Assembly (NCBI GenBank): GCA_946623825.1
Contig: CAMORN010000001.1
Span: 258,246-322,245 of the forward strand
Direction: 5' to 3'
Length of the DNA: 64,000 nt
From: an uncultured Alphaproteobacteria bacterium
GTDB taxonomy: Bacteria > Pseudomonadota > Alphaproteobacteria > Rs-D84
Part shown: one piece after another, positions 956 to 62,292 of the stretch
Layout: every line of letters starts with the position of its first letter
How positions within the stretch are numbered: position 1 is the stretch's first letter
The notes under the pieces: model-generated
The model's input: the letters and a program-made list of their open reading frames with translations, nothing else
What the model was told of the DNA's origin: nothing
Database searches by the model: none
Made by a program: the position numbers and the translations under genes

Positions 956-1141
956 TTAATCCATTTCTTCTGGTTCTGTATTGATATTGATACCAATAAG
1001 TTTGTTTTGCATATCTATGTAATATTGTAGTTGTGTATCTATAGAATCAATCACATCTTGTGGTGGATTGTTAAAGTTCATCAACATGTGTCTAATATTC
1101 TGTAAATTTGTAATTATTCTGACTAATTCATCTCTGTTCAT
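956..1141 (-). CDS. small hypothetical protein (61 aa), first gene of the yegD-like operon
   Basis: Trimmed from track ORF 956..1195. The 1195 start is TTG and lies upstream of the predicted -10. ATG at 1141 follows AAAGG and gives MNRDELVRIITNLQ... The stop is 4 nt before the yegD-like ATG. Confidence 0.45.
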   Translation of the reverse strand: MNRDELVRIITNLQNIRHMLMNFNNPPQDVIDSIDTQLQYYIDMQNKLIGININTEPEEMD

Positions 1142-1186
1142 AGCAAAAACCTTTTTACAAAATATAACTAAAAATGATATTGTATT

Positions 1187-1215
1187 TTTATACAATATTT
1201 ATATTGTCATTGCAA
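1187..1215 (-). promoter_or_regulatory. sigma70-type promoter for the small ORF/yegD-like operon
   Basis: On the reverse strand: TTGCAA (1215-1210), a 17-nt spacer, then TATAAA (1192-1187). Confidence 0.5.
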
Positions 1216-1255
1216 GCGCAAAAGTTGTTATATAAAACCACTTGGAAATATTTAA

Positions 1256-1433
1256 TTCTGGCGCGCCCAGAAGATTTACTCGGGCAAAGCCCTGCGTGGC
1301 AACCGTAACGATTTCACTGCACTTTGTTTGTAAAATCTACTTGTTGTCGAACCATGTTGAGTGTTCTCGTCCGTCTGGGCATAAATTAAAAACCGGTATG
1401 AAACCGGTTTTGAATTTCTGGCGCGCCCAGAAG
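1256..1433 (-). repeat. tRNA-Arg(ACG) 3'-end direct repeats (18 nt, 1256-1273 and 1416-1433) flanking a 142-bp non-coding insert
   Basis: TTCTGGCGCGCCCAGAAG occurs twice, 160 nt apart, and the second copy is the 3' end of the tRNA gene. The interior has a terminator hairpin, an inverted diverged tRNA T-arm/acceptor copy (1356-1382) and an 80-nt module (1274-1353) shared with the tRNA-Ser locus. Confidence 0.9.
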
Positions 1434-1495
1434 GATTCGAACCCTCAACCTTCTGATCCGTAGTCAGATGCTCTATCCAATTGAGCCATGGGCGC
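1419..1495 (-). tRNA. tRNA-Arg (anticodon ACG)
   Basis: The reverse strand folds as GCGCCCA-TG-GCTC-AATTGGATA-GAGC-A-TCTGA-CTACGGA-TCAGA-AGGTT-GAGGG-TTCGAAT-CCTTC-TGGGCGC-G-CCA. It is a 77-nt cloverleaf with an encoded CCA. Confidence 0.93.
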
Positions 1496-5711: not shown

Positions 5712-6200
5712 ATGAATAAAAAACCGGGTTTATTATTTGTAGTAGTAGTTTTTGCCATGATTATATTGGCTGCGTCATTCAATATGAATCTCGGCGGTGG
5801 GTCTGTTGTGCATTTAAGGGCAGGTATAAATCCTGATACTATATTGTATGTATGTCCAATCACGGAAAGTAATTGGAATGTATTTGCGTCTGCGTTTTCT
5901 TTATGGGAAAAATATGTATACATGTTTTTCATTTTTGCAGCAATCGTTTTGTCATTCAGTTGGGGCTGGGCATTATATCAAAATTTATTAAAAGATAAAT
6001 TTAGTGCTGATGCGTATAAAAACCCATGGGGACTAACCAAGATATTTTTCTGGGCTGGTGTGATATGTACCGTGTTGGCGGTTACACCAAATCATTTCAG
6101 AACTGTTCATGTTCGTGGTGATAATCGAAATTGGGTTTTATGTGAAAACTTTTCAGAAGGTGCGCGTCCTGTAAGGGCTCAGGCCGTAGAATTGCGCTAA
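5712..6200 (+). CDS. hypothetical multi-pass membrane protein
   Basis: 162-aa ORF with ATG, a GAGAGAG RBS-like stretch and several hydrophobic segments. No motif recognised. Confidence 0.5.
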   Translation: MNKKPGLLFVVVVFAMIILAASFNMNLGGGSVVHLRAGINPDTILYVCPITESNWNVFASAFSLWEKYVYMFFIFAAIVLSFSWGWALYQNLLKDKFSADAYKNPWGLTKIFFWAGVICTVLAVTPNHFRTVHVRGDNRNWVLCENFSEGARPVRAQAVELR

Positions 6201-15147: not shown

Positions 15148-15375
15148 AAAACACCGCACGGGGCGGTGTTTTCTTATTGTGGCGGAGACGAAGTATTCCC
15201 TTGGCATAAAATGCCTGCGGGGCAACCGTAACGATTACACGGCACATGGTTTGTGTAATCTACTTGTTGTCGAACCTAGCAACTGCGTTGCGAATGGTTC
15301 AAATCTGCCTTGCGTTTGTCGACAATAAAAAAACACCGCACGGGGCGGTGTTTTCTTATTGTGGCGGAGACGAAG
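15148..15375 (-). repeat. 46-nt direct repeats (tRNA-Ser 3' end plus its terminator; 15148-15193 and 15330-15375) flanking a 136-bp non-coding insert
   Basis: AAAACACCGCACGGGGCGGTGTTTTCTTATTGTGGCGGAGACGAAG occurs twice, 182 nt apart. The interior (15194-15276) shares 55/62 identical positions with the tRNA-Arg insert over its core. Confidence 0.9.
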
Positions 15376-15452
15376 GGATTCGAACCCTTGATACCCTTGC
15401 GAGTATACCACATTTCCAATGTGGCGCACTAGACCAACTATGCGACGTCTCC
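15362..15452 (-). tRNA. tRNA-Ser (anticodon GGA), type II with long variable arm
   Basis: The reverse strand has GGAGACG...CCACA-TTGGAAA-TGTGG-(18-nt variable arm)-AAGGG-TTCGAAT-CCCTT-CGTCTCC-G-CCA, 91 nt in total. Confidence 0.9.
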
Positions 15453-15464
15453 GAATATCAGGAA

Positions 15465-15851
15465 TTATTCTTCGTTTTCAGATTCATCTGGGGTGTCGTC
15501 TTCTTCGACAACATCTTCCGCAGGTGCGTCTTCTTCTACTAAAGTATTATCCAAGATAGCGTCATAATCACGCAATTTTGGATCTTCTGATGTGATTTCC
15601 AATGCTGTTTCAGATTCAGACACAGCAGGTGTATCTTTATAAGATTCGATAAATTCATGACGAACTTCTTCTACATCTAATTTGCCACTTGCGATTTCGC
15701 GTAATGCAACAACTGTTAATTTGTCATCTTTCTTTTCGACGACAGCTGGGGCGCCACCATTTAAATCGCGAACGCGTTGAGATGCCAACATACCCAGTTC
15801 ATAACGGCTGTCTACATAAGGTAAAGTGTCTGAATTTGTTACACGTGCCAT
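15465..15851 (-). CDS. rpoZ: DNA-directed RNA polymerase omega subunit with acidic C-terminal tail
   Basis: MARVTNSDTLPYVDSRYELGMLASQRVRDLNGGA... The start was set at ATG 15851 (AAAGGA RBS). The C-terminus is strongly acidic. Confidence 0.88.
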   Translation of the reverse strand: MARVTNSDTLPYVDSRYELGMLASQRVRDLNGGAPAVVEKKDDKLTVVALREIASGKLDVEEVRHEFIESYKDTPAVSESETALEITSEDPKLRDYDAILDNTLVEEDAPAEDVVEEDDTPDESENEE

Positions 15852-19090: not shown

Positions 19091-19167
19091 TGGTGGGTTA
19101 GGTAGGACTCGAACCCACGACCAAAGCGTTATGAGCGCTCCGCTCTAACCAACTGAGCTACTAACCC
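19091..19167 (-). tRNA. tRNA with CAT anticodon (elongator Met or lysidine-modified Ile2; not initiator-like)
   Basis: GGGTTAG-TA-GCTC-AGTTGGTTA-GAGC-G-GAGCG-CTCATAA-CGCTT-TGGTC-GTGGG-TTCGAGT-CCTAC-CTAACCC-A-CCA. It has a G1-C72 pair and no GGG/CCC anticodon stem. Confidence 0.9.
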
Positions 19168-23569: not shown

Positions 23570-23599
23570 TTTATTTTCCTTTTTATTTTATCATTCATA

Positions 23600-24996
<1,397 letters not shown>

Positions 24997-38227: not shown

Positions 38228-38304
38228 GCGAGCGTAGCTCAGTTGGCTAGAGCGCAACCTTGCCAAGGTTGAGGTCGAGGGTTCGAGCCCCTTTGCTCGC
38301 ACCA
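38228..38304 (+). tRNA. tRNA-Gly (anticodon GCC)
   Basis: GCGAGCG-TA-GCTC-AGTTGGCTA-GAGC-G-CAACC-TTGCCAA-GGTTG-AGGTC-GAGGG-TTCGAGC-CCCTT-TGCTCGC-A-CCA. Confidence 0.93.
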
Positions 38305-38635
38305 GAATTTATAAACACCCGAAAGGGTGTTTTTTATGTTTAAGCAAAGGGGCGAGAACCCGCAGGGTTGCGAGGCGAGGCAACGGCAGTTGCCGAAGTA
38401 CTTTGCTCGCACCAGAATTTATAAACACCCGAAAGGGTGTTTTTTATGTTTAAGCAAAGGGGCGAGAACCCGCAGGGTTGCGAGGCGAGGCAACGGCAGT
38501 TGCCGAAGTACTTTGCTCGCACCAGAATTTATAAACACCCGAAAGGGTGTTTTTTTATGTTTAAGCAAAGGGGCGAGAACCCGGAGGGTTGCGAGGCGAG
38601 GCAACGACAGTTGCCGAAGTACTTTGCTCGCACCA
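38291..38635 (+). repeat. tandem array of three 110/110/111-bp units, each ending in a copy of the tRNA-Gly 3' end
   Basis: CTTTGCTCGCACCA starts at 38291 (in the tRNA), 38401, 38511 and 38622. Units 1 and 2 are identical and unit 3 differs at 3 positions. Each unit is a terminator hairpin (AAACACCCGAAAGGGTGTTTTTT), then GCAAAGGGGCGAGAACCC (an inverted tRNA T-arm/acceptor copy), then the GGCAAC-GGCA-GTTGCC hairpin, then the tRNA 3' end. Confidence 0.95.
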
Positions 38636-38770
38636 AAGTTTTTTATTAGAAATCCGGGCATTTGCACCGGATTTTTTGTTTTTCACTCGAATTATTGCCC
38701 ACAAACAAAAATCCTGGAAAATCCAGTATTTTTTTGCTTTGGCACACTTGAAAATAAAGGATAAAAACCT

Positions 38771-38971
38771 ATGTTTAAAAAGTGTAAAGCAAACTGTCAA
38801 GCAAATGACAACCTTTATATAAGAAATGATGTGTTTTATTATATGGTCGAATTACCGCGTCAAGATGGTAAAAGACGATATTTTATAAAATCATTACACA
38901 CAAAAGATTATTACGAAGCATTGGAAAGGCATTTTATCCAAATATGGTCACATAAAAACAGCACCTTATAG
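38771..38971 (+). pseudogene. N-terminal fragment (66 codons) of a tyrosine integrase
   Basis: ...NLYIRNDVFYYMVELPRQDGKRRYFIKSLHTKDYYEALER... fits the N-terminal pattern of tRNA-targeting integrases (LY-R-x3-YY ... GKR-x4-SL-T-D-x2-A). No catalytic domain follows. It lies 136 nt after the last tRNA-Gly 3'-end copy. Confidence 0.6.
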
Positions 38972-39082
38972 TGCCATTTATCATAAAACATACATAAACA
39001 CGCCAAATTCAAGCCGTGGACAACGAAAATAAAATCGGCAATAAAACTATAAATCAGAAAGGCAGAACAGTTTATATATTTT

Positions 39083-40090
39083 TTACTTACGTTTGTTTAG
39101 AACATAAAAAATACTTCCAATAAATGTTGTAAATAATGTTACAAAAAACAAATATCTTATAACATGATAAACACTGAAACCCAAAATATCTCTCGCATAC
39201 CAATATTCTATTTGTTCACGTTTATTATCATTTTTGAAATCAATATATTTTGGTTCTACTTTTTTTACACCTTTTTTATCAAAACTTAAACTTATGTATC
39301 CATATTTCTTTATATTTTCATCTCTAATAACTTGACCACTGGATGGGGTTGTATAAAAAGGAACACCTGCAAAATTGTTTTTTTTAAAATAATGAACATG
39401 TCCGAACAACATCACATCAACTTTATATTTTTTTAAAACATTTTCTAACTTATTTTTTGTTAAAACATCTAATTTATCATTACTAATACTTTTTGTAATA
39501 ATTGGTGGAATATGAGAATATATAACACAATTATTAAACATAGGTCTAATTTTTTTCAATGTATCCTCTAACCATTCAAACTGTTCGTCATCTATATTTC
39601 TTGAAGAATTATCCAAAGCTATAAATAAAACATTTCCATAAGAAAACCAATAATACGTATTGCCCATAACATTACGATATGGACGCACATCATATTTATG
39701 TTTTTTAAAAACATCATGATTTCCAGGGACCGCATATAACGGCATGTTTCCAACATGTTTTTTAATTTCGTCTAACAACCAATATTGTCCCAAACTGCTG
39801 GTATGTGTAATGAAATCACCAAGATATAACATAAAACTATAATTTTCATCTGATTTTCTTATATCATCTATAACTTGCTCTAACACATGATTTTCTGCCC
39901 CCGTATCAGACAATACTGCAACAGAAAACTCATTTTGATTTTTAGCAAAAAAATGTGAGGCAGGAGACTTTAAGTAATAGTTTGATTTTGAAAATCTATC
40001 CATTGAACAAACATGAAATACAGATATAAAAAATATACTCAGCACACCTAATATACTTATAACAAAGAAAAATTTATAAACATATTTCAT
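39083..40090 (-). CDS. membrane-anchored calcineurin-like metallophosphoesterase
   Basis: VLSDTG, LYLGDF, VPGNHD, IYSHIPP and LFGHVHY motifs, with N- and C-terminal TM segments. By eye it lies in an AT-richer stretch between tRNA-Gly 3'-end copies. Confidence 0.8.
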   Translation of the reverse strand: MKYVYKFFFVISILGVLSIFFISVFHVCSMDRFSKSNYYLKSPASHFFAKNQNEFSVAVLSDTGAENHVLEQVIDDIRKSDENYSFMLYLGDFITHTSSLGQYWLLDEIKKHVGNMPLYAVPGNHDVFKKHKYDVRPYRNVMGNTYYWFSYGNVLFIALDNSSRNIDDEQFEWLEDTLKKIRPMFNNCVIYSHIPPIITKSISNDKLDVLTKNKLENVLKKYKVDVMLFGHVHYFKKNNFAGVPFYTTPSSGQVIRDENIKKYGYISLSFDKKGVKKVEPKYIDFKNDNKREQIEYWYARDILGFSVYHVIRYLFFVTLFTTFIGSIFYVLNKRK

Positions 40091-40456
40091 AATAGTTCCC
40101 TACATCATATCCATAGATAATTTATTCTTGGTGTGCTATGGTATCACAAAAAAAACGTAATACAAATATATTTTTTTAATGTATAGAAAAATTTTTTACT
40201 ATACGTGATATCGGCTAAGATATATTCTTTGTCAGAATTCCTAACATCAGAATGAATTGAAACAAAACATTAAATAAAAGTCAATGTTATTTTATGAATA
40301 TAAAATACAGTCATTGTAGGTAAAAAAATCGTGTGCTTTTTACAAAAAATACGATAAATTCAAAAAAGTGTCAAGCAAAGTGTCAGGCAAACTGATAAAA
40401 ATGGCTGAATTTCGGGTTAAAACGGACTAAAAAATGCCAAAAAAAGGCGTGATTGT

Positions 40457-40591
40457 GGTTCCCTTTGCTCGCACCAGAAATTATAAACACCCGAAAGGGT
40501 TTTTTTTTTATTGTTGTATTAGCAAAGGGGCGAGAACCCGCAGGGTTGCGAGGCGAGACAACGCAGTTGCCGAAGTACTTTGCTCGCACCA
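40457..40591 (+). repeat. distal copy of the tRNA-Gly-associated unit bracketed by two tRNA 3'-end copies
   Basis: GGTTCCCTTTGCTCGCACCA (40457-40476) is the T-loop/acceptor with a 4-nt deletion. It is followed by the terminator hairpin, GCAAAGGGGCGAGAACCCGCAGGGTTGCGAGGCGAGACAACGCAGTTGCCGAAGTA, and CTTTGCTCGCACCA (40578-40591). Confidence 0.9.
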
Positions 40592-40737
40592 GAAATTATA
40601 AACACCCGAAAGGGTGTTTTTTTTATTTGGTTAAACATGAATAAGTAAAATATTTATAAAATAAATATTGACAAATATATTTATTTGTATATTATATGTA
40701 TAAATAAGTTTTATTTTGTGATAAAGGTTGTAAAAAA

Positions 40738-42027
40738 ATGAAAAGTAAAGATTTAAAGAGTTTTATTGGTGCGTCTGCTTTTATTGGCAGCATGTTAATT
40801 TCTTGTGGTCGTGTTGGTTTACCAGTATCTTCTAAAACCGAAGATAAAACAATTTTACCCAAAAAAGAACAAAAATACGATATTGAAAACGATCAAAGAA
40901 TGCGTCAAAAATATCAAAAAATGTATGCGGATTCTATTCGTTTTGCAAATGGTTATGACAGTATTTGTAACAAAAGTAATATGTTATGGAGAAAAACGGC
41001 AGAGCTTGAATCTCGTGCAGATTCTTTAGCTATGGAAAATTCTTTAGGGGCTGTAATGCAAAGAGAAGTTGAAAGTGCTGCTAATAAAATTCTTAAAGAT
41101 TTTTTAAATAGCGTTTCTGGTGTTTTAAGAATGTATCAAATATCTTTACAAGACTACGTAACAGAAGATAATGATTTTTTATGGTGTTTTAATACTAATG
41201 TACAAAAAGATAATTATGATGGTACGGATTATGTTTTAAAACAACCTTTGATGTATTTTGGTGTTAATACTTGTGGATTTTATGATTCTGAACATGAATT
41301 TAATGAATTGGTCGATATTATAAATCAAATTATTTATGAATCAGATCATGCTAAATCACATAAAAAAGAAATTATGAATAAAATTAATGCTTTGATTAAA
41401 AAGGTAAAGCCAAAATTGATTGCTAGCAGAAAATCTATAGAACGTAAATATTCTGATTATTATGTAGTAATTGACGGACAAGATGCTGCTTTTATATCTT
41501 ATGGAGCAGATGATTGGAATTATGGTTATAGTGATACAGAATATCCAGAAAGACAGGCTGTGGTTAAAGTTACAACTTTAAGTGTATATGGAGAAGATTT
41601 ACCAATAAAATTTTTTGAAGATAAAAAAGCAAAATATGAATTGGTTAATCTAGGAAATAACAGATGGCAAGTAAAAAAGATTTCAAATATAGGTGTGATT
41701 GAAAATACAGCAATATTTACAGCTAAGGACGAAAAGTCTGTTAAAGAATATTATGCGGGGATTGATGCACGTAATTATTCAGAATTTCGTTTTGATCCGG
41801 GACATGATTCTGGTGGAGTACATATTGAAGTAGAGGAAGGTGTAGTTATAAAAAAAGCAAAACAACAATGGTGGCCATCAAGAAATGTTATAAATCAAAT
41901 TGATTCATTAGAAGAGGAATCTATAAAATATGCAAGTCAAGCAGCAAAATTAGAAGAGCAAAAGAAAATAATAAATCAATATGCAGATTCTGTTGCGCGT
42001 GCAATGGTTAACCAATATTGTAAATAG
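40738..42027 (+). CDS. hypothetical lipoprotein (429 aa)
   Basis: The signal ends in LISC (lipobox). A TTGACA-N16-TATTAT promoter lies at about 40669-40696 and a terminator at 42038-42066. Confidence 0.6.
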   Translation: MKSKDLKSFIGASAFIGSMLISCGRVGLPVSSKTEDKTILPKKEQKYDIENDQRMRQKYQKMYADSIRFANGYDSICNKSNMLWRKTAELESRADSLAMENSLGAVMQREVESAANKILKDFLNSVSGVLRMYQISLQDYVTEDNDFLWCFNTNVQKDNYDGTDYVLKQPLMYFGVNTCGFYDSEHEFNELVDIINQIIYESDHAKSHKKEIMNKINALIKKVKPKLIASRKSIERKYSDYYVVIDGQDAAFISYGADDWNYGYSDTEYPERQAVVKVTTLSVYGEDLPIKFFEDKKAKYELVNLGNNRWQVKKISNIGVIENTAIFTAKDEKSVKEYYAGIDARNYSEFRFDPGHDSGGVHIEVEEGVVIKKAKQQWWPSRNVINQIDSLEEESIKYASQAAKLEEQKKIINQYADSVARAMVNQYCK

Positions 42028-42074
42028 TTGTTTAAACAAAAACCGCCATTAATGGCGGTTTTTTGATTTTGTTG

Positions 42075-42118
42075 GCAAAGGGGGGAGTTGCGAGGCGAGG
42101 CAACACAGTTGCCGAAGT
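42075..42118 (+). repeat. partial third copy of the tRNA-Gly-associated unit (no tRNA 3'-end copy)
   Basis: GCAAAGGGGGGAGTTGCGAGGCGAGGCAACACAGTTGCCGAAGT. It keeps the hairpin GGCAAC-ACA-GTTGCC but lacks CGAGAACCCGCA and the CTTTGCTCGCACCA end. Confidence 0.8.
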
Positions 42119-42119
42119 G

Positions 42120-42392
42120 TTATTTCTTTTTTCTGTGTAATTTAAGAATCATGTATAATACGACTGAACTGAATGATAATGTGATGGTGTCGGAAATAAC
42201 CATCTGGATAGATTTCAGGTATATTCCATACAATATCCAAAATACCAAACCGGTACAATATATCAAATACATTGTCAGAGACAATCCAGAAACATCTTTT
42301 GTTTTGATAGATTTTATTGCTTGTGGCAAGAAAGCAATTGTTGTGCATGTGCAACATATACAGCCGATTATTTCACCGATTATTGGATTCAT
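42120..42392 (-). CDS. SemiSWEET (PQ-loop) family transporter
   Basis: 90 aa with three TM helices and AFLPQAIKSIKTKDVSGLSL (PQ motif). Confidence 0.75.
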   Translation of the reverse strand: MNPIIGEIIGCICCTCTTIAFLPQAIKSIKTKDVSGLSLTMYLIYCTGLVFWILYGIYLKSIQMVISDTITLSFSSVVLYMILKLHRKKK

Positions 42393-47255: not shown

Positions 47256-50200
47256 TTATTCTATTGAATTATCGTGTGCATTATATGTTTCGTTGTTGTA
47301 TTGCACATGCATCTTTTTATCAGAGATTTTGTTTATATTTATATCATCATTGGTTAATATAATATAATGTACCCCGTCATTTGTTTGTATTGCCATAGAT
47401 GGACCATTTGGTTTTTCGTCTGTTAAACATATCTTGTCATCAGGATTTTCGCCAATATGCATCCATTTCTGGCTTTCGCAATAGAATTCCCATTTTGCAT
47501 ATAATGTCTGTTTGCCGGTGGCTGTATTTGGAATTATGTATGAATCATAACAATCTGTTAAATCTTCATAAGAACACCAGCCCGAGAACAAGAAATTCTT
47601 TTTCGTTGGTGTGCCGTCAATAATGGTTTCTGAACCGTAATTATAAGCATGTGGTGCATTTGCAAAATTTGTACCGCCATTTAACACATATTCAATATAA
47701 TATGTTTCAGGTGTCCATTGTGCGTACAATGTTATATCCCCAACAGAATCTGACGGTATAATAAACACTTGATTATCATTACCATCAAACCAACCATTAA
47801 ATATATATCCAGTATTTGTTGGAACACAATTTATTTCTTTTTCAACACCGACTGTATAATATTCGTTATCACAACCAGAACCACCATTTGTATAATCATA
47901 AATGATTTGATATTCAGCTGTTTCCCAAACGGCAGTCAAAGTTTTATTGCCATTTGAACCGTGTGGCAATTCGGTTATAATATTACCATGTTCATCAACC
48001 CAGTGAATGAAATTATAACCGTCTTTTGTTGGTGTTCCAAATGTGATAGTGTCAGATTCAACAGTATATTCATTTGGTGCGTTTTCATAATTTTCACCGC
48101 CATTTAATATGTATTCAATATTATATATTTCAGGTACCCATTTTGCATATAATGTTATGTCTTGTTCTTGTGTTAAATCAAACACATGTGATAAATCTGC
48201 ATTGTGTTCTATAATTCCACCGTTTTCTGGGGCTGCAATATATACGAAATTATATCCCAAGCCATTTGCAAATTGGTTCCAACCATTGAAAGAATATGCG
48301 TTTCTGAAAGGTTCTGCGTCAATGTAACCGATAATTTGTGTCCAATATATTTTACAAGCTTCCCCTTCGGCACAAACAATATCGTCAGGAACATTTGCCA
48401 CAACATCCCCGCCAGAATTAGTATCAAAATGAATATTTATTTTGCGCGCCCATACGGCAGTCAAAGTTTTATCGCCATTTGACCCATGTGGCAATTCAGT
48501 TATAACATCACCATTTTCATCCAACCAATGAATGAATTTATAACCGTCTTTAGTTGGTGTTCCGAATATAATATTTTCTGAATCTGCGGTATATGTAGCA
48601 GGGGCGTTTTCATAATTTTCACCGCCGTCTAATTCATATGTGATATTAAATATATCTGCGTCCCATTTTGCATATAATGTTTTGTTTCCGACAGAACCAA
48701 CCGGTATGTTTGTTATTATGTCACCTGTAAATTCAGCATTATCATACCAACCAATAAATCCAAAGAATTCGCGTTCGTCTGGGGCTGATATAGGTAAATC
48801 AGAATCCATATTGCTTGAATATTCGGTTGGGTTTGATGCGTTCAATGATTCATCTGCACCATTTAATACATAATTGATAGTGTATTTATAAACACAAGAT
48901 GAAATATCGCCAATATGTTCTTCGTCTTCGGTCCAATATTTATGACCGGAAACATATTCACCACCGTTCGGGGCTTCTGGACATTCTGTGAAACATTTTT
49001 TCATTGTAACATTATCGCCAGAAATAGAATCAGGATATTCAACCGGACACATTTCGCATGCAACATGACCGTCCCAATCAATTTCAAACCCAGTTAGATA
49101 TTGATATTGACCGGCATCACAAACGGTTGAAATATTAGAATTGTTAAAGATATTCGCCATACCGCCCGCGGTATATGTGGCACTACGATTTCCCGCTTCG
49201 TTATCAGATAAATAACCCGTAATACCCTTAAATAATTCAGTCGGCACCGGTGCGGTTAAATATTGTGTGTCTGCAAATGTTTCTTCAAACATAGGATATT
49301 TACTATTAGAAATATCAACTGCTGGTAATGTACCAGAAATATTTTGGAATAATTTTACTGGGATAGGTGTTGCATTACCATTTTCGTCTTTACCAAGATT
49401 AGTTGCCCCCTTGAAAGTCATTCTTAATCCAAGTGGTGCAGTTCCAGTAACATTTTTGAATAAATCTTCTGGTATTGGACCGGTTAAACCAGATGCGTTC
49501 AAGAAAGTTTTATTAAATGAACCATGCTTTATAGGACCTGATATACCTTCAAATAAAGTTGCTGGAATTGGCCCTGTCAGATTAGAACAGTTTTCAAATG
49601 TTCTTGCAAACATATATTCAGCAGGCACACCATTAAAACGACCAAACAAATTTTGTGGTATTGAACCTGTCAGCCCAGAACACCCATTAAATGTGTTTGT
49701 AAACATATAAGTTGCAGGTGTCCCGTTTATGTTTCCAAACAAATTTTGTGGTATTGAACCTGTCAGCCCAGAACACCCATTAAATGTTGATGAAAACATA
49801 TAAGGGGCAGGTGCTCCGTTTATATTTCCAAACAGATTTTCTGGAATTGAACCTGATAGCCCGGAACATCCATAAAATGTTGATGTAAACATATAAGTTG
49901 CAGGTGTCCCGTTTATGTTTCCAAACAGGTTTTCTGGAATTGAACCTGATAGCCCAGAACATCCATAAAAGGTTGATGTAAACATATAAGGGGCAGGAGC
50001 TCCATTTAGATTTCCAAACAGGTTTTCTGGAATTTGACCTGTTATATTTGGATTATTATAAAATGTCCTGTTAAACATACATTTTTGTGGTGCACCAGAT
50101 AATTTACCAAATAAACCACTATATTTTTTGTTGTTTTCAGTGTCGGTTATATCTGCTGGCAAATTTCCAGATAAATTGGTGGCACCAAATGTCAATGCAA

Positions 50201-52652
50201 ACAAAGCATCTGTATAATTTCCATTTAAACCACTAAACAGGTTTTGTGGTATTTCCCCAGATAATTTTGTACAACCATAGAATGATTGGTTAAACATACT
50301 TTTTCTTGGTTGACCAGTTATGTTTGCAAATAATTCTGGTGGAATTGGTCCCTCTAAATTTGTACAGTTTTCAAAAGCAGCAATAAATGTTGGTTGTGTG
50401 CCGTTCGGGGCAGTTGGAAATACAGCGCTTAAATTGCCTTCTATTCGTTTTAATTTGTCGCGCGTTGCGTTGTTAGATTCAGCTTTGAGCCAGCTATTAC
50501 CAAACCAAAAAGTAGGATGATAGTTTCCACCGCAATCATCATTTACCGTATCGTTTGTGTCATAATTAGTCATATTTTTAGAAGACATACCAATTCTGTA
50601 TGTTCCTGCATTTGCATAAGTGTGTTGTTGATATTCGCTTGAAGCAGATGCGATATCAATCGTTCCGTCGCCCCAATCTATATATACTGTTCCTGTATAG
50701 TTTGATACATAAAATGCGAATTTTTCCCCCGCATTCATTGGTGTTGTTGTCATCCAGAATGCTGAATTTGGATATGTATGACCGTATATTGTAACCGTAT
50801 TAGAACCATTGGATAGATTCTGTAATAAATCAAGCGTCAATGTTGTAATACGGTTTGAAGAAGTGTTTATATTAAATCCGTTTTTATCATTAAACCACGC
50901 ATAGAAAGATAGATTTTCCGATAATGTTGGGTCGGTTAAATCAAATGGTTGTGTTTCGCCAACAACCCATTGTGTTGGGTTTGTTGTTGTCAGTGCTTGT
51001 CCATTTTCATCAACATATTTGATTGTGTATATGTTTGTTTTCCATTTTGCGTATAATGTTTTGTTGCCTGAAAATTGGGTGGATGTTGTTATTGGTTCAC
51101 CGCTGAAACCAGTGTTATCATACCAACCAATAAAATCAGAATTTTGTCTGGTTGTTGTTGGTATTGTGTTCAATGTATATCCGCCGGCATTTGCGTCTGA
51201 ATAATAAATTTTTTGCACCGCCACCGCAGAGCCACCATTTGTGACAAATGTCAATGTTGCATAACATTTTGTTTTATCTGTTGCACCTTCGTCAGAATTT
51301 GGGTATTCGGTTGGGCATTTTTCAATAGATGTTGTTGTGTCTAAACAACTGTATTCGCCACCACGACAAAATGAATTCGCAGGGCAATTTGTTGGTTCTG
51401 GTGTTGTGATGGTGGACATCAAAGTTGTCTTGAAATCATTATCCCATGAAAAATGGTCACCACAATTACCCGCACATTCATTTCCGCAAATATCCCCATT
51501 TTCAAATGTTCCAGATAAAATCCATTTTGTAGAACCAAATATATCGGTCATATTACACCAACAATTTGAACCATAAATTGTGTCTGAATCAAATTGAACA
51601 TCGGATAATTCTTTGTAAGAACCGCCAATGTCACTGCACGCGGAACGACCACTGAAATTTATTTGTGGGTCAGAACCAAAATGAACCAACCATGAATTTT
51701 CAGGTTTGTTTTCAATTAAACTGTCGTCATCACAGAATGTGACACTGCGTGATTTATGGCATTTATAACCCGTTCCAGATATATCATACACCGGTGGAAT
51801 ATATTGTCCCGGCTGTAATATAATAGAGCATGAATAATTTCTGGTTATACATGTTTGGGTTGTTGTGTCCCAATATTCTGTTTCTGCATCACAAGAATCA
51901 GGTCCCGTCTTTCTTATACATGGATTTTCAATTGTTGCACCCGCACCATTTGCAGTTTCATATTTGGTATCGCATACGCATGAAGATGAACCGCTTTCGC
52001 TGTGTGAATTTTCAGGACATTGATATAAACCATTTGTCCCAGATTCTATGTCGCCACCCGGACAATATGAATCAGCAGGGCAATCAGCCGTTCTTAAAAT
52101 CGCAGTATTAAACAAGTTTTCTTTTATCGAATTGTCTGGCCATCTGTAAACATGTCCCGCTAATTGTGCGCAATCGTGTGCGCAATTTTCCCAACATGGT
52201 TGATTATTATCAATTGCACCACGCGCAACCCATTTTGATTTATATGAATAATTGTTATTTGGGTCGTTTTCACCGTTTAATCTGCACCAACAAAGATACC
52301 CATTACCAACATTGCCACGATCAAAATCTTCATCTGAAACATCGCCCCACGAACCGTAAGTTAAACATGCAGAATCACCGTATATTTTACCGTAATCAAA
52401 TATTGTATAGAAAGAATTTTCAGGAATGTTTTCAGATGCCTGATTATTGTTATATCCGTGATATTGAATAGAAGATTCATTGTTCGGCGCATCTGCGTTC
52501 ACATCAACCCATGTTGGCAAAGGTTCTGAAACAATATATTTACCAGAATCTATTGTTATTGCGTTTGCGTTTAAAGAACAGAGCGACACGAACAATACGG
52601 ATAAAATCCGTATGACAAAAAAACTGCAAAAAAACGACGGTTTTTTATGCAA
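47256..52652 (-). CDS. giant secreted cysteine-rich repeat protein (1798 aa) with Listeria-Bacteroides (Flg_new-type) repeats and LRR-like 31-aa repeats
   Basis: The TTG start is the only start that preserves the signal peptide MHKKPSFFCSFFVIRILSVLFVSLCSLNANA. There are two Cys-rich N-terminal modules of about 200 aa. Repeated Y-I-Y-x-L-N-G-G...G-Y-x-F-x-G-W...L-Y-A-x-W units are present, plus a central block of F-x-G-C-S-G-L-x-G-S-I-P-x-N-L-F repeats. Confidence 0.8.
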   Translation of the reverse strand: MHKKPSFFCSFFVIRILSVLFVSLCSLNANAITIDSGKYIVSEPLPTWVDVNADAPNNESSIQYHGYNNNQASENIPENSFYTIFDYGKIYGDSACLTYGSWGDVSDEDFDRGNVGNGYLCWCRLNGENDPNNNYSYKSKWVARGAIDNNQPCWENCAHDCAQLAGHVYRWPDNSIKENLFNTAILRTADCPADSYCPGGDIESGTNGLYQCPENSHSESGSSSCVCDTKYETANGAGATIENPCIRKTGPDSCDAETEYWDTTTQTCITRNYSCSIILQPGQYIPPVYDISGTGYKCHKSRSVTFCDDDSLIENKPENSWLVHFGSDPQINFSGRSACSDIGGSYKELSDVQFDSDTIYGSNCWCNMTDIFGSTKWILSGTFENGDICGNECAGNCGDHFSWDNDFKTTLMSTITTPEPTNCPANSFCRGGEYSCLDTTTSIEKCPTEYPNSDEGATDKTKCYATLTFVTNGGSAVAVQKIYYSDANAGGYTLNTIPTTTRQNSDFIGWYDNTGFSGEPITTSTQFSGNKTLYAKWKTNIYTIKYVDENGQALTTTNPTQWVVGETQPFDLTDPTLSENLSFYAWFNDKNGFNINTSSNRITTLTLDLLQNLSNGSNTVTIYGHTYPNSAFWMTTTPMNAGEKFAFYVSNYTGTVYIDWGDGTIDIASASSEYQQHTYANAGTYRIGMSSKNMTNYDTNDTVNDDCGGNYHPTFWFGNSWLKAESNNATRDKLKRIEGNLSAVFPTAPNGTQPTFIAAFENCTNLEGPIPPELFANITGQPRKSMFNQSFYGCTKLSGEIPQNLFSGLNGNYTDALFALTFGATNLSGNLPADITDTENNKKYSGLFGKLSGAPQKCMFNRTFYNNPNITGQIPENLFGNLNGAPAPYMFTSTFYGCSGLSGSIPENLFGNINGTPATYMFTSTFYGCSGLSGSIPENLFGNINGAPAPYMFSSTFNGCSGLTGSIPQNLFGNINGTPATYMFTNTFNGCSGLTGSIPQNLFGRFNGVPAEYMFARTFENCSNLTGPIPATLFEGISGPIKHGSFNKTFLNASGLTGPIPEDLFKNVTGTAPLGLRMTFKGATNLGKDENGNATPIPVKLFQNISGTLPAVDISNSKYPMFEETFADTQYLTAPVPTELFKGITGYLSDNEAGNRSATYTAGGMANIFNNSNISTVCDAGQYQYLTGFEIDWDGHVACEMCPVEYPDSISGDNVTMKKCFTECPEAPNGGEYVSGHKYWTEDEEHIGDISSCVYKYTINYVLNGADESLNASNPTEYSSNMDSDLPISAPDEREFFGFIGWYDNAEFTGDIITNIPVGSVGNKTLYAKWDADIFNITYELDGGENYENAPATYTADSENIIFGTPTKDGYKFIHWLDENGDVITELPHGSNGDKTLTAVWARKINIHFDTNSGGDVVANVPDDIVCAEGEACKIYWTQIIGYIDAEPFRNAYSFNGWNQFANGLGYNFVYIAAPENGGIIEHNADLSHVFDLTQEQDITLYAKWVPEIYNIEYILNGGENYENAPNEYTVESDTITFGTPTKDGYNFIHWVDEHGNIITELPHGSNGNKTLTAVWETAEYQIIYDYTNGGSGCDNEYYTVGVEKEINCVPTNTGYIFNGWFDGNDNQVFIIPSDSVGDITLYAQWTPETYYIEYVLNGGTNFANAPHAYNYGSETIIDGTPTKKNFLFSGWCSYEDLTDCYDSYIIPNTATGKQTLYAKWEFYCESQKWMHIGENPDDKICLTDEKPNGPSMAIQTNDGVHYIILTNDDININKISDKKMHVQYNNETYNAHDNSIE
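49590..50070 (-). repeat. about five near-identical 93-bp (31-codon) tandem repeats inside the giant gene
   Basis: CCAAAC... register points lie at 49642, 49735, 49828, 49921 and 50014, a period of 93 nt. They encode FGNINGTPATYMFTSTFYGCSGLSGSIPENL-type units. Confidence 0.85.
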
Positions 52653-52715: not shown

Positions 52716-53630
52716 TTATTTCTCTGCGGACATAGGATGGGCGTGGTTATATGCATCCATTATTTCTGCCATATTTACTTTCGTGTACAATTGTGTTGTT
52801 GACAGGGAAGAATGTCCCAATAGTTCCTGTAAAGAGCGTAAATCTGCACCACCCGCCAATAATGCAGTTGCGAAAGTATGTCGCAAAGCGTGCGGTGTTA
52901 CATAATCAGGTAATTGCAAATAATGACGCAATTTTTCAATAACTTTTTCTGCCATACGCGATGACATAGGCAGCCCGCGAACACTGCGAAACAATGGGGC
53001 GTTTGAATCATGTCCAAATGGGCGAATTTTTATGTATTTTTGAATTGCTTCATTTACGGCAGGCAACACCGGAACAATGCGTTCTTTGTTACCTTTACCA
53101 ACGATGTGTAATGAAGTAGGGTTGTTTGCAACATCGCTGTTTTTTAATGATAAAGCTTCACTTATACGCAAACCGCATCCAAATATTAACACAACCAGCG
53201 CCCAATCGCGTGCACCAATCCATGGGTCGTTTGCATCTATTTCTTTGATAGCGGTGTGCATATCTGCAACATCTGTGGTTTCAATTGCCTTGGACAATTT
53301 GCGTGGAACCTTTGGCGAAGATATTAAACCAATAGCATCGTTTTGAATGTTTTTGTACCGCCCCAGATATTTATAAAACGTTCGCAGTGATGACAATGCG
53401 CGTGCGGTTGATTTATGACTTAAATTGCGACGGGCACGGTCTGCCAACCACGAACGAAAAGATATGGTGTCTGCCCCTGCAATATCAATCAGGGTGGTGT
53501 CGCCATCATTGAATCTTTTATAAAAATTTACGAAATCTAATATGTCGGTTTCATATGCAGAAACAGTATGTGTTGAATAGTTTTTTGTATTCAACAAATA
53601 ATCTGTAAATTCAGCAATAATTTCGTTCAT
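52716..53630 (-). CDS. XerC/XerD-family tyrosine recombinase
   Basis: ARALSSLRTFYKYL, GLRISEAL, and HALRHTFATALLAGGADLRSLQELLGHSSLSTTQLYT (R-H-R-Y catalytic set). The start was set at ATG 53630 because the track start 53648 is TTG and overlaps the upstream gene. Confidence 0.88.
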   Translation of the reverse strand: MNEIIAEFTDYLLNTKNYSTHTVSAYETDILDFVNFYKRFNDGDTTLIDIAGADTISFRSWLADRARRNLSHKSTARALSSLRTFYKYLGRYKNIQNDAIGLISSPKVPRKLSKAIETTDVADMHTAIKEIDANDPWIGARDWALVVLIFGCGLRISEALSLKNSDVANNPTSLHIVGKGNKERIVPVLPAVNEAIQKYIKIRPFGHDSNAPLFRSVRGLPMSSRMAEKVIEKLRHYLQLPDYVTPHALRHTFATALLAGGADLRSLQELLGHSSLSTTQLYTKVNMAEIMDAYNHAHPMSAEK

Positions 53631-53634
53631 TTTT

Positions 53635-54372
53635 TTATTTAATCTCAAATGTTGCAGATACAGAAACGGTTATTTCTGTGTCTTTGCTGACAATACTGCC
53701 AGATGTGTCAAAAGATGTTCCTGCAACCGCTTTTGCAGACATCAAACGGAAATTTGTATAATCGCGTTCACCATAAGACACATTGTTATAAGATACTGAT
53801 AATAATTTACCAGCACGCTTTTTATCAGATGAAACCAATGCGTTTGCGCGTTCACGTGCGTTTTCAACGGCAACTGATAAACATTTTTCAAGTACAGGTT
53901 TAATTTTTTCTTTGCTTGTGAATAAACGCAGATTTTCAGTATAAACATTTTCTTCGCCTGCAAATTTATTCAATAAATTTTCAATTGTTTCTGTTTTATC
54001 AGATGATATTTCGACAGAAATACTTGTTTCTGTGCCTAAGACAATAGATTCTTGTTTTTCGCTGTCCCATTTTGTTTTTTCATACGAATTAAAATTCGCA
54101 GTTTGCATTTGAACATCTTGTTCTTTCAAATATTCAGTAATTGCATTCATTTTTGATGTTGCAATTTGCATAGATTTGGCAGGGTTTTTATCCATAGCAA
54201 CAACACGCAGAGTAATTGCAGTTTTATCTTTCGGGACAGATGTTAAACATTCGCCAACAACATCTATTTTTGGTGTTTCTGATTTTGTTTTATCGATGTT
54301 GCAAAATATTGCCAATAACACAGCAGTTATACCGGCAATAACAATAGTTTGATTTGTTGTTGTTTGTTTCAT
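53635..54372 (-). CDS. periplasmic SIMPL/DUF541-like protein
   Basis: An N-terminal TM/signal, and a length and alternating pattern reminiscent of 26-kDa periplasmic immunogenic proteins. This is a weak call from memory only. Confidence 0.4.
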   Translation of the reverse strand: MKQTTTNQTIVIAGITAVLLAIFCNIDKTKSETPKIDVVGECLTSVPKDKTAITLRVVAMDKNPAKSMQIATSKMNAITEYLKEQDVQMQTANFNSYEKTKWDSEKQESIVLGTETSISVEISSDKTETIENLLNKFAGEENVYTENLRLFTSKEKIKPVLEKCLSVAVENARERANALVSSDKKRAGKLLSVSYNNVSYGERDYTNFRLMSAKAVAGTSFDTSGSIVSKDTEITVSVSATFEIK

Positions 54373-62215: not shown

Positions 62216-62292
62216 TGGTGCACCCAGTGCGAGTCGAACGCACAATCTTTGCCTTCGGAGGGCAATGCATTATCCAGTTATGCTATGGGTGC
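62216..62292 (-). tRNA. tRNA-Arg (anticodon CCG)
   Basis: GCACCCA-TA-GCAT-AACTGGATA-ATGC-A-TTGCC-CTCCGAA-GGCAA-AGATT-GTGCG-TTCGACT-CGCAC-TGGGTGC-A-CCA. Confidence 0.9.

Follow-up and report, generated by a model that had tools for sequence, protein, structure and literature searches.

A folded module placed in the T-loop of duplicated tRNA 3′ ends in gut and rumen Alphaproteobacteria

Positions 1256–1433 of a 64,000-nucleotide stretch of DNA (the window) from an uncultured Alphaproteobacteria bacterium (contig CAMORN010000001.1, assembly GCA_946623825.1) comprise the 3′ end of a tRNA-Arg(ACG) gene and a structured insert that is closed by a second copy of that same 3′ end. The segment is one copy of a two-layer composite repeat specific to Ca. 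Enterousia-like Alphaproteobacteria of gut and rumen. In the first layer, the 3′ part of the tRNA, from the 5′ strand of the T-stem to the CCA, is repeated downstream in direct orientation, with a diverged inverted copy ahead of it; originally, the second copy took in the terminator as well. In the second layer, the T-loop of the second copy is split exactly between nucleotides 58 and 59 by a folded module of 71 nt (module A), which always has the orientation of the tRNA. The interpretation towards which we lean, though at slightly less than even odds, is that module A is an insertion module, non-autonomous and dependent on its hairpins, whose targets are the T-loops of dispensable copies of tRNA 3′ fragments.

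The tRNA-Arg(ACG) gene itself (1419–1495, minus strand) is intact and encodes its CCA (ARAGORN; Rfam tRNA, 68.2 bits). The 18-mer TTCTGGCGCGCCCAGAAG is present at 1256–1273 and at 1416–1433, as the original prediction had reported, with no further match at two or fewer mismatches in a search of the window and none expected by chance in 100 shuffles. Because the tRNA is placed at 1419–1495 on the minus strand, the adjoining copy (1416–1433, minus strand) consists of the T-stem 3′ strand, the acceptor strand, CCA, and three further nucleotides, or the last 15 nt of the tRNA plus 3 trailing nt; the placements by ARAGORN and Rfam bear out its earlier identification as the tRNA 3′ end. The insert between the two 18-mers measures 142 bp and contains no open reading frame (ORF). 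Read in the tRNA sense, its parts (all on the minus strand) begin with the intrinsic-terminator hairpin AAAACCGGT-TTCAT-ACCGGTTTT, followed by a T-run (1389–1411), which had been predicted and was recovered by a terminator scan as well as from the sequence, and which lies at the midpoint of the long imperfect palindrome that the tRNA 3′ part makes with its inverted copy. The inverted copy, X′ (GCCCAGACGGACGAGAACACTC, 1359–1380), is a diverged counterpart of the T-arm and the acceptor 3′ strand; 17 of its 22 positions match the reverse complement of the T-arm and acceptor when counted by hand, in agreement with the earlier count, and the T-loop complement TTC is replaced by CGA. It is followed by GGTTCGA (1347–1353), which in the duplicated tRNA 3′ segment corresponds to the end of the T-stem 5′ strand and the first five nucleotides of the T-loop, and which forms the left flank of module A (1276–1346; covariance model R1, 79.7 bits, E=7e-17), a conserved 71-nt stem-loop element of two domains. 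The right flank (1256–1275), AT-CTTC-TGGGCGC-G-CCA-GAA, is the remainder of the duplicated segment and holds the downstream 18-mer; in the tRNA sense it reads AT-CTTCTGGGCGCGCCAGAA. The GGTTCGA to the left and the AT-CTTC to the right of module A are thus the two halves of the T-loop of tRNA-Arg itself.

A repeat of this kind could in principle be a chance match or a product of misassembly, and short contigs that carry the neighbouring thymidine kinase (TK) gene do stop near the tRNA (L002 and L003; L-numbers are the labels of fetched loci), as contigs do at repeats. However, the Arg locus, including the duplication, is present in four independent NCBI and ENA assemblies (GCA_001684375.1, labelled L127, ERZ28612955, ERZ1756108, and ERZ28612945) that are identical across both junctions, and the duplication is therefore no assembly artefact. 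The same architecture recurs in ~250 copies elsewhere. Together with the shuffle control, the agreement among assemblies rules out an artefact or chance origin, whose probability we regard as negligible.

The extent of the family was established from two scans with a 20-nt split pattern taken from the module. The scan of GTDB, with one genome per species, provided 119 stretches among the matches listed, and an independent scan of JGI metagenomes provided 119 contigs among the matches listed. A covariance model (R1) built from 69 copies located 120 copies of the module in 100 GTDB loci. Altogether module A is represented by at least about 250 copies in at least 72 assemblies and at least 119 metagenome contigs. 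These copies lie behind tRNAs of at least 19 anticodon types (Met, two of Gln, Leu, four of Arg, four of Ser, three of Pro, Lys, Tyr, Gly, and Val), which upholds the claim that the interior of the insert is conserved across different tRNA loci. All GTDB matches listed except one chance match come from Ca. Enterousia or from Alphaproteobacteria metagenome-assembled genomes (MAGs) of rumen, gut, or faeces. The exception, from a Maribellus MAG (L066), is the sole match outside the alphaproteobacterial clade among the matches listed, and was rejected by the covariance model. In the window, the only R1 matches are the modules at tRNA-Arg and tRNA-Ser(GGA), at ~80 bits each, with everything else at 15 bits or less. 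The predicted recurrence at tRNA-Ser therefore stands (positions 15209–15276 and 1286–1353 are 87% identical; repeat family D17), whereas the length of 80 nt given to the module does not, as it spans the 71 nt from 1276 to 1346.

The position of the module relative to the tRNA is highly regular. Of 120 tRNA genes in the GTDB loci, 92 are followed by a module within 400 nt, and of the 111 metagenome copies that could be evaluated, 77 lie less than 400 nt downstream of a tRNA on their own strand. The orientation of the module is always that of the tRNA. The left flank equals the 5′ half of the T-loop of the cognate tRNA in 103 of 124 GTDB copies, comprising TTCGA (81 copies), TCCGA (9 copies, behind tRNA-Met, whose loop is TCCGAAT), GTTCA (9 copies, for loops reading TTCAAAT), and minor variants that make up the remainder; in the metagenome set, TTCGA alone forms the left flank of 103 of 129 copies. 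The right flank continues with the rest of the T-loop, the T-stem 3′ strand, the acceptor strand, and the CCA of the cognate tRNA, and the two flanks rejoin to an intact T-loop without a duplicated base (e.g. TTCA|AAT in L023). Module A is accordingly inserted at T-loop position 58|59 and interrupts a second copy of the tRNA 3′ part that is otherwise contiguous. This result divides the earlier suggestion of an attL/attR layout: the direct repeat of the tRNA 3′ end is real, but because the module has on its left the T-stem and the T-loop 5′ half of the cognate tRNA, it lies inside a duplicated tRNA segment and not beside an island arm. The remaining ~17% of copies occupy non-tRNA sites, where the left flank ends in GA in 21 of 21 cases.

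The tRNA-derived arms are less constant than the module they enclose. A diverged, inverted T-arm copy precedes the direct copy in other loci also, where it likewise makes a long imperfect palindrome with the terminator and the real tRNA end; in some cases it reaches as far as TGG and takes in the acceptor strand. Upstream, 25 of 101 units retain five exact nucleotides complementary to the T-stem 5′ strand, compared to 2 by chance, and the last 13 nt of the tRNA recur exactly after the module in 54 of 92 GTDB units. The module is thus kept while the arms decay, and the proposal that the insert ends in tRNA-derived terminal inverted repeats does not hold, as these repeats are not the ends of the module and are themselves poorly maintained.

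Units also occur in arrays (L014, L015, and L094), and modules can be stacked head-to-tail (A-A or A-A-A) within a single unit (L083, L105, L044, and L025). Furthermore, a second and unrelated module of about 80 nt (CCCGCAGGCGAAAGGCAGACG...AGCGAAACA), family B, occupies the identical T-loop 58|59 position in at least nine units (L008 at 5715–5790; L011 at 5331 and 5699; L026, L048, L054, L069, L080, and L103). Behind tRNA-Met and tRNA-Arg there are arrays in which A modules alternate with B modules, and a single B copy follows tRNA-Ser (L080). At one locus (L052, 6050–7290) a 1.2-kb islet separates tRNA-Gln(TTG) from a distal module-A unit and contains one ORF, judged by eye to be methyltransferase-like, and no integrase. 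A third element, palindromic and ~80 nt in length, has inverted ends of roughly 20 bp (ACGAGAATAnACAATTA ... TTATTGTGTATCGAGG) and a terminator-like centre; it occurs just 3′ of module A in L030, L038, L046, L049, L063, L068, and L101, being nested between module A and the tRNA 3′ copy in L030, L038, L063, and L101, and related right ends are found in L009, L028, L040, and L091.

To describe the fold of module A, 69 copies were aligned (alignment A2), and a structure was drawn by hand and then tested. The copies had been fetched by an exact 20-nt pattern, such that the invariance of AAGTAGATT and AATCGTTACGG is partly by construction, while CGCAG, GAG, the final GA, and the helices are unaffected. 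Cells of the alignment assigned to pairs were paired in 95% of cases, compared to 24–40% when the partners were slid by 1–3 columns; 15 of 26 pairs had changes on both sides, in 216 cells; and the covariation score was reached by none of 500 shuffles. RNAalifold, which was not given the hand-drawn structure, produced the identical fold and added a strongly covarying inner stem of two pairs, 20–29 (GC 47, AU 20) and 21–28 (UA 34, CG 30). The first domain opens with helix P1 (NNAC/GTNN) and a tandem A/G internal loop; GUA/UAC, a GU bulge, and an 8-bp stem come next, and beyond an AA/GCA internal loop two more pairs close a small loop. In the second domain, a short closing helix, P2, with a covarying N-N′ pair (CG 32, GC 20, AU 7) leads through a conserved CGCA/GAG internal loop to a hairpin whose length varies. 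At the foot of hairpin 1 the sequence is conserved (GATT/AATC), whereas hairpin 2 varies in both sequence and length, and the module as a whole ranges from 71 to 87 nt. The unpaired segments CGCAG, GAG, and GA, which lie outside the search pattern, are invariant or nearly so; GTAG at the foot of hairpin 1 is also invariant, though it belongs to the fetch pattern and is paired in the fitted fold. Cells with G-U outnumber those with A-C (21 versus 9, with the ambiguous inner stem left out), and therefore it is the tRNA-sense strand that folds, as RNA or as single-stranded DNA. Single-sequence folding energies are not significant (z about −1.2), so the structural case rests on covariation, from which we conclude that module A is a selected single-stranded fold.

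No known family accounts for this fold, consistent with the earlier failure to recognize one. Rfam gave no match with E≤10 over 1276–1346, gathering thresholds being reached by tRNA and tmRNA matches only, and neither module was matched in the A/B array of L011. A weak 14-bit match to YrlA was dismissed, as it extends no further than the tRNA, the terminator, and the margin of the inverted copy. A likeness to the hammerhead ribozyme near the inverted copy (GAYGAG-stem-CGA(A/C)AAC) was likewise set aside, as by eye it lacks the invariant C3, U4, and A14, and it is found in only 28 of 124 units.

The compensatory changes in each helix, the excess of G-U over A-C on the tRNA-sense strand, and the constancy of the unpaired segments are all in keeping with a structured RNA maintained by the host. 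According to this explanation, the module, perhaps together with the tRNA-derived arms, would be transcribed in the tRNA 3′ trailer by read-through of the terminator, and would act as a small RNA or a protein-binding element tied to tRNA expression, processing, or turnover, having spread in ancient times and being now under purifying selection at each copy. The age of the copies points in the same direction. Genomes in which the TK protein has no more than about 50% identity still show the order TK, tRNA-Arg(ACG), module, and nearly all modules score 60–94 bits with R1, with only about a tenth degraded. Module copies in the same genome behind different tRNAs are 0.76 identical, copies in different genomes behind the same tRNA 0.77, and the background 0.74; copies within a genome are no more alike than those between genomes, indicating that no recent burst has taken place. 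Even within the species of the window, represented in GTDB by the genome of L083 (TK protein 99% identical), the first L083 module differs from that of the window by a compensatory double change from A-T to G-C in hairpin 1.

The explanation by a host RNA is a serious one because purifying selection at the level of the host is the better fit to copies that are old, diverse, and seldom decayed, and to the compensatory evolution at orthologous loci. Several observations nevertheless speak against it. An intrinsic terminator stands between tRNA and module, and nothing promoter-like that could give the module its own transcript was found between them. Copy number varies within the species, the window having one module and L083 two, with an extra 71–73 nt that carries a different hairpin 2; a gene-bearing islet can part the unit from its tRNA (L052); the unrelated module B occupies the same slot; and no Rfam family corresponds to the module. 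A role as leader or riboswitch for the downstream gene was rejected, as the orientation of downstream genes is unbiased (60:40). We consider a host-maintained RNA possible, but would not expect it to be the correct explanation.

The comparison with L083 also bears on the surroundings of the unit. L083 and the window are collinear up to the Arg unit and diverge abruptly downstream of it (L083 6700–6950, window 1100–1255). L223 is likewise collinear with the window up to the tRNA unit and diverges abruptly just 5′ of tRNA-Ser (window 15450–15520), the Ser unit itself being identical. On the basis of these two divergences, the tRNA loci look like breakpoints of recombination or rearrangement.

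In the interpretation that we favour, an insertion module, the identical oriented placement behind 19 kinds of tRNA, the use of the same position by two unrelated modules, the tandem stacks, and the ~17% of copies at non-tRNA sites are taken to require an insertion process that recognizes the context of the T-loop. The difference in copy number within the species, the selected fold of the tRNA-sense strand, the decay of the flanks around a maintained module, and the empty tRNA sites in the window also count in its favour. The module would act through a single-stranded, folded nucleic acid on the tRNA-sense strand, in the manner of REP elements or of gene-less IS200/IS605 derivatives, and would enter the exposed loop of a T-arm hairpin on the 3′ side of TTCRA, with neither terminal inverted repeats nor target duplication. 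Tandem stacking would be possible since the module end (..GA) recreates a similar site. Survival may be restricted to dispensable pseudo-copies of tRNA 3′ ends, as an insertion into a genuine tRNA gene would be lethal. On this view, the repeats derived from the tRNA are not the ends of the element but its landing pad, which would be supplied by 3′ fragments that were displaced or duplicated at places of DNA integration into tRNA genes. The enzyme would act in trans, and most copies would be old and seemingly kept intact by selection.

A number of findings weigh against this mechanism. The missing within-genome homogenization fits purifying selection on each old copy better than it fits a purely selfish element, and degraded copies are few (about 10% of R1 matches), while the conservation of the sequence is partly a product of the exact 20-nt fetch pattern. 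The two hairpins of the module differ from each other, unlike the ends of IS200/IS605 elements. The mechanism also fails to explain how the local duplication arose, or the inverted copy, for which fold-back synthesis at the terminator could be the source. Moreover, no transposase, HUH (single-strand DNA) endonuclease, or integrase was found near any copy, according to Pfam analysis of ORFs and motif scans that covered ~1.7 Mb of flanks and not whole genomes, so the proposed enzyme is purely a postulate. Specifically, the 146 ORFs of 200–470 aa within 2.5 kb downstream of modules gave matches to housekeeping genes and no enrichment, with no recombinase, transposase, or integrase among the 25 commonest Pfam families. 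The box II motif of tyrosine recombinases occurred once in 948 kb (the window and 119 GTDB loci), in an Xer-like recombinase of 317 aa encoded in the window (HALRHTFA...LGHSSLSTTQLYTKV; 52719–53669, minus strand), with no convincing match in 738 kb of metagenome loci. The HUH motif P[ND]HxH was absent from the GTDB loci and gave one spurious match in the metagenome loci. The insertion and host-RNA explanations are compatible if an anciently mobile module was co-opted.

The same searches constrain a third explanation, in which the unit is a miniature island made by an integrase: the remnant, or gene-less mobilizable form, of an element that enters the tRNA gene at the T-loop, with the tRNA end and the displaced fragment as attL and attR and the module as att-proximal DNA. 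The direct repeat does extend from the T-loop region past the 3′ end, often including the terminator (46 nt at tRNA-Ser, 51 nt at tRNA-Gly), and the tRNA is left intact. Tandem arrays, as well as gene-bearing islets between the tRNA and a distal unit (L052, and the Gly locus of the window with its weak DUF6538 remnant), also speak for it. The arrangement fits the published definition of islands in tRNA genes, namely a regenerated tRNA and a displaced 3′ fragment (PMC4383910), and crossover in the T-loop is known for phage Ms6 (PMC1762012). However, an intact integrase was present in none of 238 loci, the sole tyrosine recombinase being the Xer-like one; the module is thus not confined to islands that bear an integrase, a confinement that would have marked it as ordinary attR DNA. 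Three scans of IMG/VR, which bear on a phage attachment site, returned nothing. The module splits a contiguous copy of the cognate T-loop, unlike the arm of an attachment site, and hairpin covariation is unexpected in arm sites that bind protein as duplex DNA. Finally, repeats that share the identical local terminator suggest local duplication rather than an incoming element. We regard a miniature island as unlikely.

We also considered an RNA-guided system related to TnpB, Cas12, or bridge RNAs, in which the module would be the scaffold and the adjacent tRNA 3′ copy the guide. The conserved scaffold is indeed followed by ~20 nt identical to the sequence after TTCGA in the real tRNA, resembling the right-end RNA of TnpB with TTCGA as the target-adjacent motif. 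Yet in about 40% of copies the supposed guide has decayed or is missing, and the variable positions of the module are paired stems and not free loops, two observations by which we discarded the scaffold-and-guide model. In addition, the ~17% of copies outside tRNA loci have no tRNA flank, no TnpB, IscB, or IS110 gene was detected nearby in the Pfam and motif scans of the flanks, and the target would be an essential gene ~100 bp away. A system of this type is accordingly very improbable.

Taking families A and B together, a broader proposal can be formulated: both may belong to a new class of small structured elements that home to position 58|59 of T-arm hairpins, either as mobile nucleic acid with its own insertion chemistry or as host RNAs for which duplicated tRNA 3′ fragments serve as a platform. 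We give this proposal a substantial, though less than even, chance. If it were true in either form, the arrays of units at tRNA 3′ ends, with or without cargo genes, would constitute a cassette-like system that needs no adjacent integrase.

The window contains further tRNA loci of relevance. The sister unit at tRNA-Ser(GGA) (15148–15452, minus strand; repeat families D11 and D17; R1 82.4 bits) comprises, on the minus strand, the tRNA gene (15362–15452), an inverted T-arm copy (about 15296–15309), a mini-hairpin (15279–15291), GGTTCGA (15270–15276), module A (15197–15269), and a 46-nt direct repeat of the tRNA 3′ end with its terminator (15148–15193 and 15330–15375). A mini-hairpin of the form GCAAC-GNA-GTTGC often lies between the inverted T-arm copy and GGTTCGA, in the Ser unit as in many other loci (e.g. 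L012, L013, L014, L015, and L023); its stem variants covary (ACAAC/GTTGT, GAAAC/GTTTC, and GCAAT/ATTGC), and a similar hairpin is found within the Gly-type cargo described below. Two tRNA sites in the window are empty, tRNA-Met (19091–19167) and tRNA-Arg(CCG) (62216–62292), each consisting of tRNA, terminator, and next gene only; their counterparts are occupied in other species (L042, L037, and L096).

An analogous array is present at tRNA-Gly(GCC) (38228–38634, plus strand; repeat families D2, D7, and D10), where the tRNA is followed by three tandem units of 110 bp (38291–38621). Each unit contains the tRNA 3′ end, the terminator, and an inverted T-arm copy (GCAAAGGGGCGAGAACCC), with the T-loop replaced by a GC-rich hairpin cargo of another kind, and the direct repeat of 51 nt includes the terminator. 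The array is followed by an islet (about 38635–40447) with a 66-aa ORF and a metallophosphoesterase, another Gly-type unit (40448–40628), a second islet (about 40630–42070) with a 429-aa ORF that has no Pfam match, and a partial unit (42075–42120). The 66-aa ORF (38771–38971) has a weak match to DUF6538 (E=7e-4, below threshold) and is possibly the remnant of an integrase N-terminus; tblastn found no homologues in other loci. The Gly-type cargo was not found in the other fetched loci or in IMG/VR. Elsewhere in the window are a permuted, two-piece tmRNA gene of the alpha type (23597–23949, minus strand; tag peptide AANDNVRFAMAA), which fits an alphaproteobacterial origin; a surface-type ORF of 1798 aa (47256–52652, minus strand) with 93-nt tandem repeats (49449–50042) and repeats of 423/525 nt; and, in the region 56900–58900, 72-nt repeats near 58471–58851.

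The 3′ ends of tRNA genes are classic landing sites for foreign DNA, and the remnants found there are usually taken as dead integration scars. Here, a whole clade of gut Alphaproteobacteria with reduced genomes keeps hundreds of folded modules at a single nucleotide position of duplicated T-loops, with compensatory evolution and without a recombinase gene in the flanks. If the modules are mobile, they would represent a T-loop-specific mechanism of insertion, on single-stranded DNA or RNA, that was not recognized before; if they are host RNAs, they would form a new conserved RNA family linked to tRNA genes. In practical terms, the module repeats break metagenome assemblies at tRNA genes and mark the apparent breakpoints at L083 and L223, and the covariance model is ready for use in annotating these poorly known genomes.

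Among known systems, islands in tRNA genes share with the unit an intact tRNA followed by a direct repeat of the 3′ part from the T-arm, accretion in tandem, and occasional cargo genes between the repeats. They differ in that the displaced fragment should start at the crossover and abut the DNA of the element, whereas here a contiguous tRNA segment that includes the 5′ half of the T-loop is split by a structured module; an inverted copy lies ahead of the displaced fragment, the repeats often include the local terminator, and no integrase gene was found in the 238 loci. Among relatives of such islands, CIMEs are gene-less derivatives that can be mobilized in cis, with which the unit may be compared.

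REP elements are marked by GTAG at the base of their stem, accept G-T pairs, persist for long periods, and are inherited vertically (PMC3733652). REP, BIME, and REPIN sequences, which are mobilized by RAYT, are similarly small and non-coding, lie downstream of genes and terminators, and form long-lived mosaic or tandem clusters; module A also has G-T pairs in its stems and, at the 5′ foot of a stem (AA-GTAG-ATT...), a GTAG that may or may not correspond to the REP tag. In contrast to the single hairpin of 20–40 nt of a REP, however, module A has two unlike domains with conserved internal loops, stacks head-to-tail instead of forming inverted doublets, and shows no master sequence within a genome. 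Its insertion point in T-loops is strict, and the flanks hold no RAYT-like HUH motif. Unlike MITEs, the module has ends (NNAC... / ...GAGNGA) that are not inverted repeats, and its insertion leaves no target-site duplication.

Elements of the IS200/IS605 group transpose as single strands by ‘peel and paste’, and their gene-less derivatives, PATEs, have end hairpins that are alike. The points in common with module A are a fixed orientation 3′ of a short motif (here TTCRA), the lack of inverted repeats and target duplication, hairpins on one strand, and the potential for tandem insertion. The differences are the dissimilar hairpins of the module, the old and diverse copies, and flanks in which no TnpA or TnpB was found. 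The attC sites of integrons and the attP hairpin of CTX phage are comparable in forming an imperfect inverted repeat (here the inverted and direct T-arm copies) with a mismatched centre and a variable tip, in keeping structure more than sequence, and in building arrays of units, with or without a gene, at one anchor. The unit differs from attC in lacking the R″/R′ boxes (RYYYAAC / GTTRRRY) and the L boxes, in having no integron integrase near the anchor, and in the poor conservation of its inverted arm. Lastly, the palindromic elements of Rickettsia and other short palindromic repeats of Alphaproteobacteria, which carry a CGTC tag (PMC3733652), are inserted in protein genes and have no tie to tRNA T-loops, but they resemble the modules described here in being small structured repeats, specific to a clade, in reduced alphaproteobacterial genomes.

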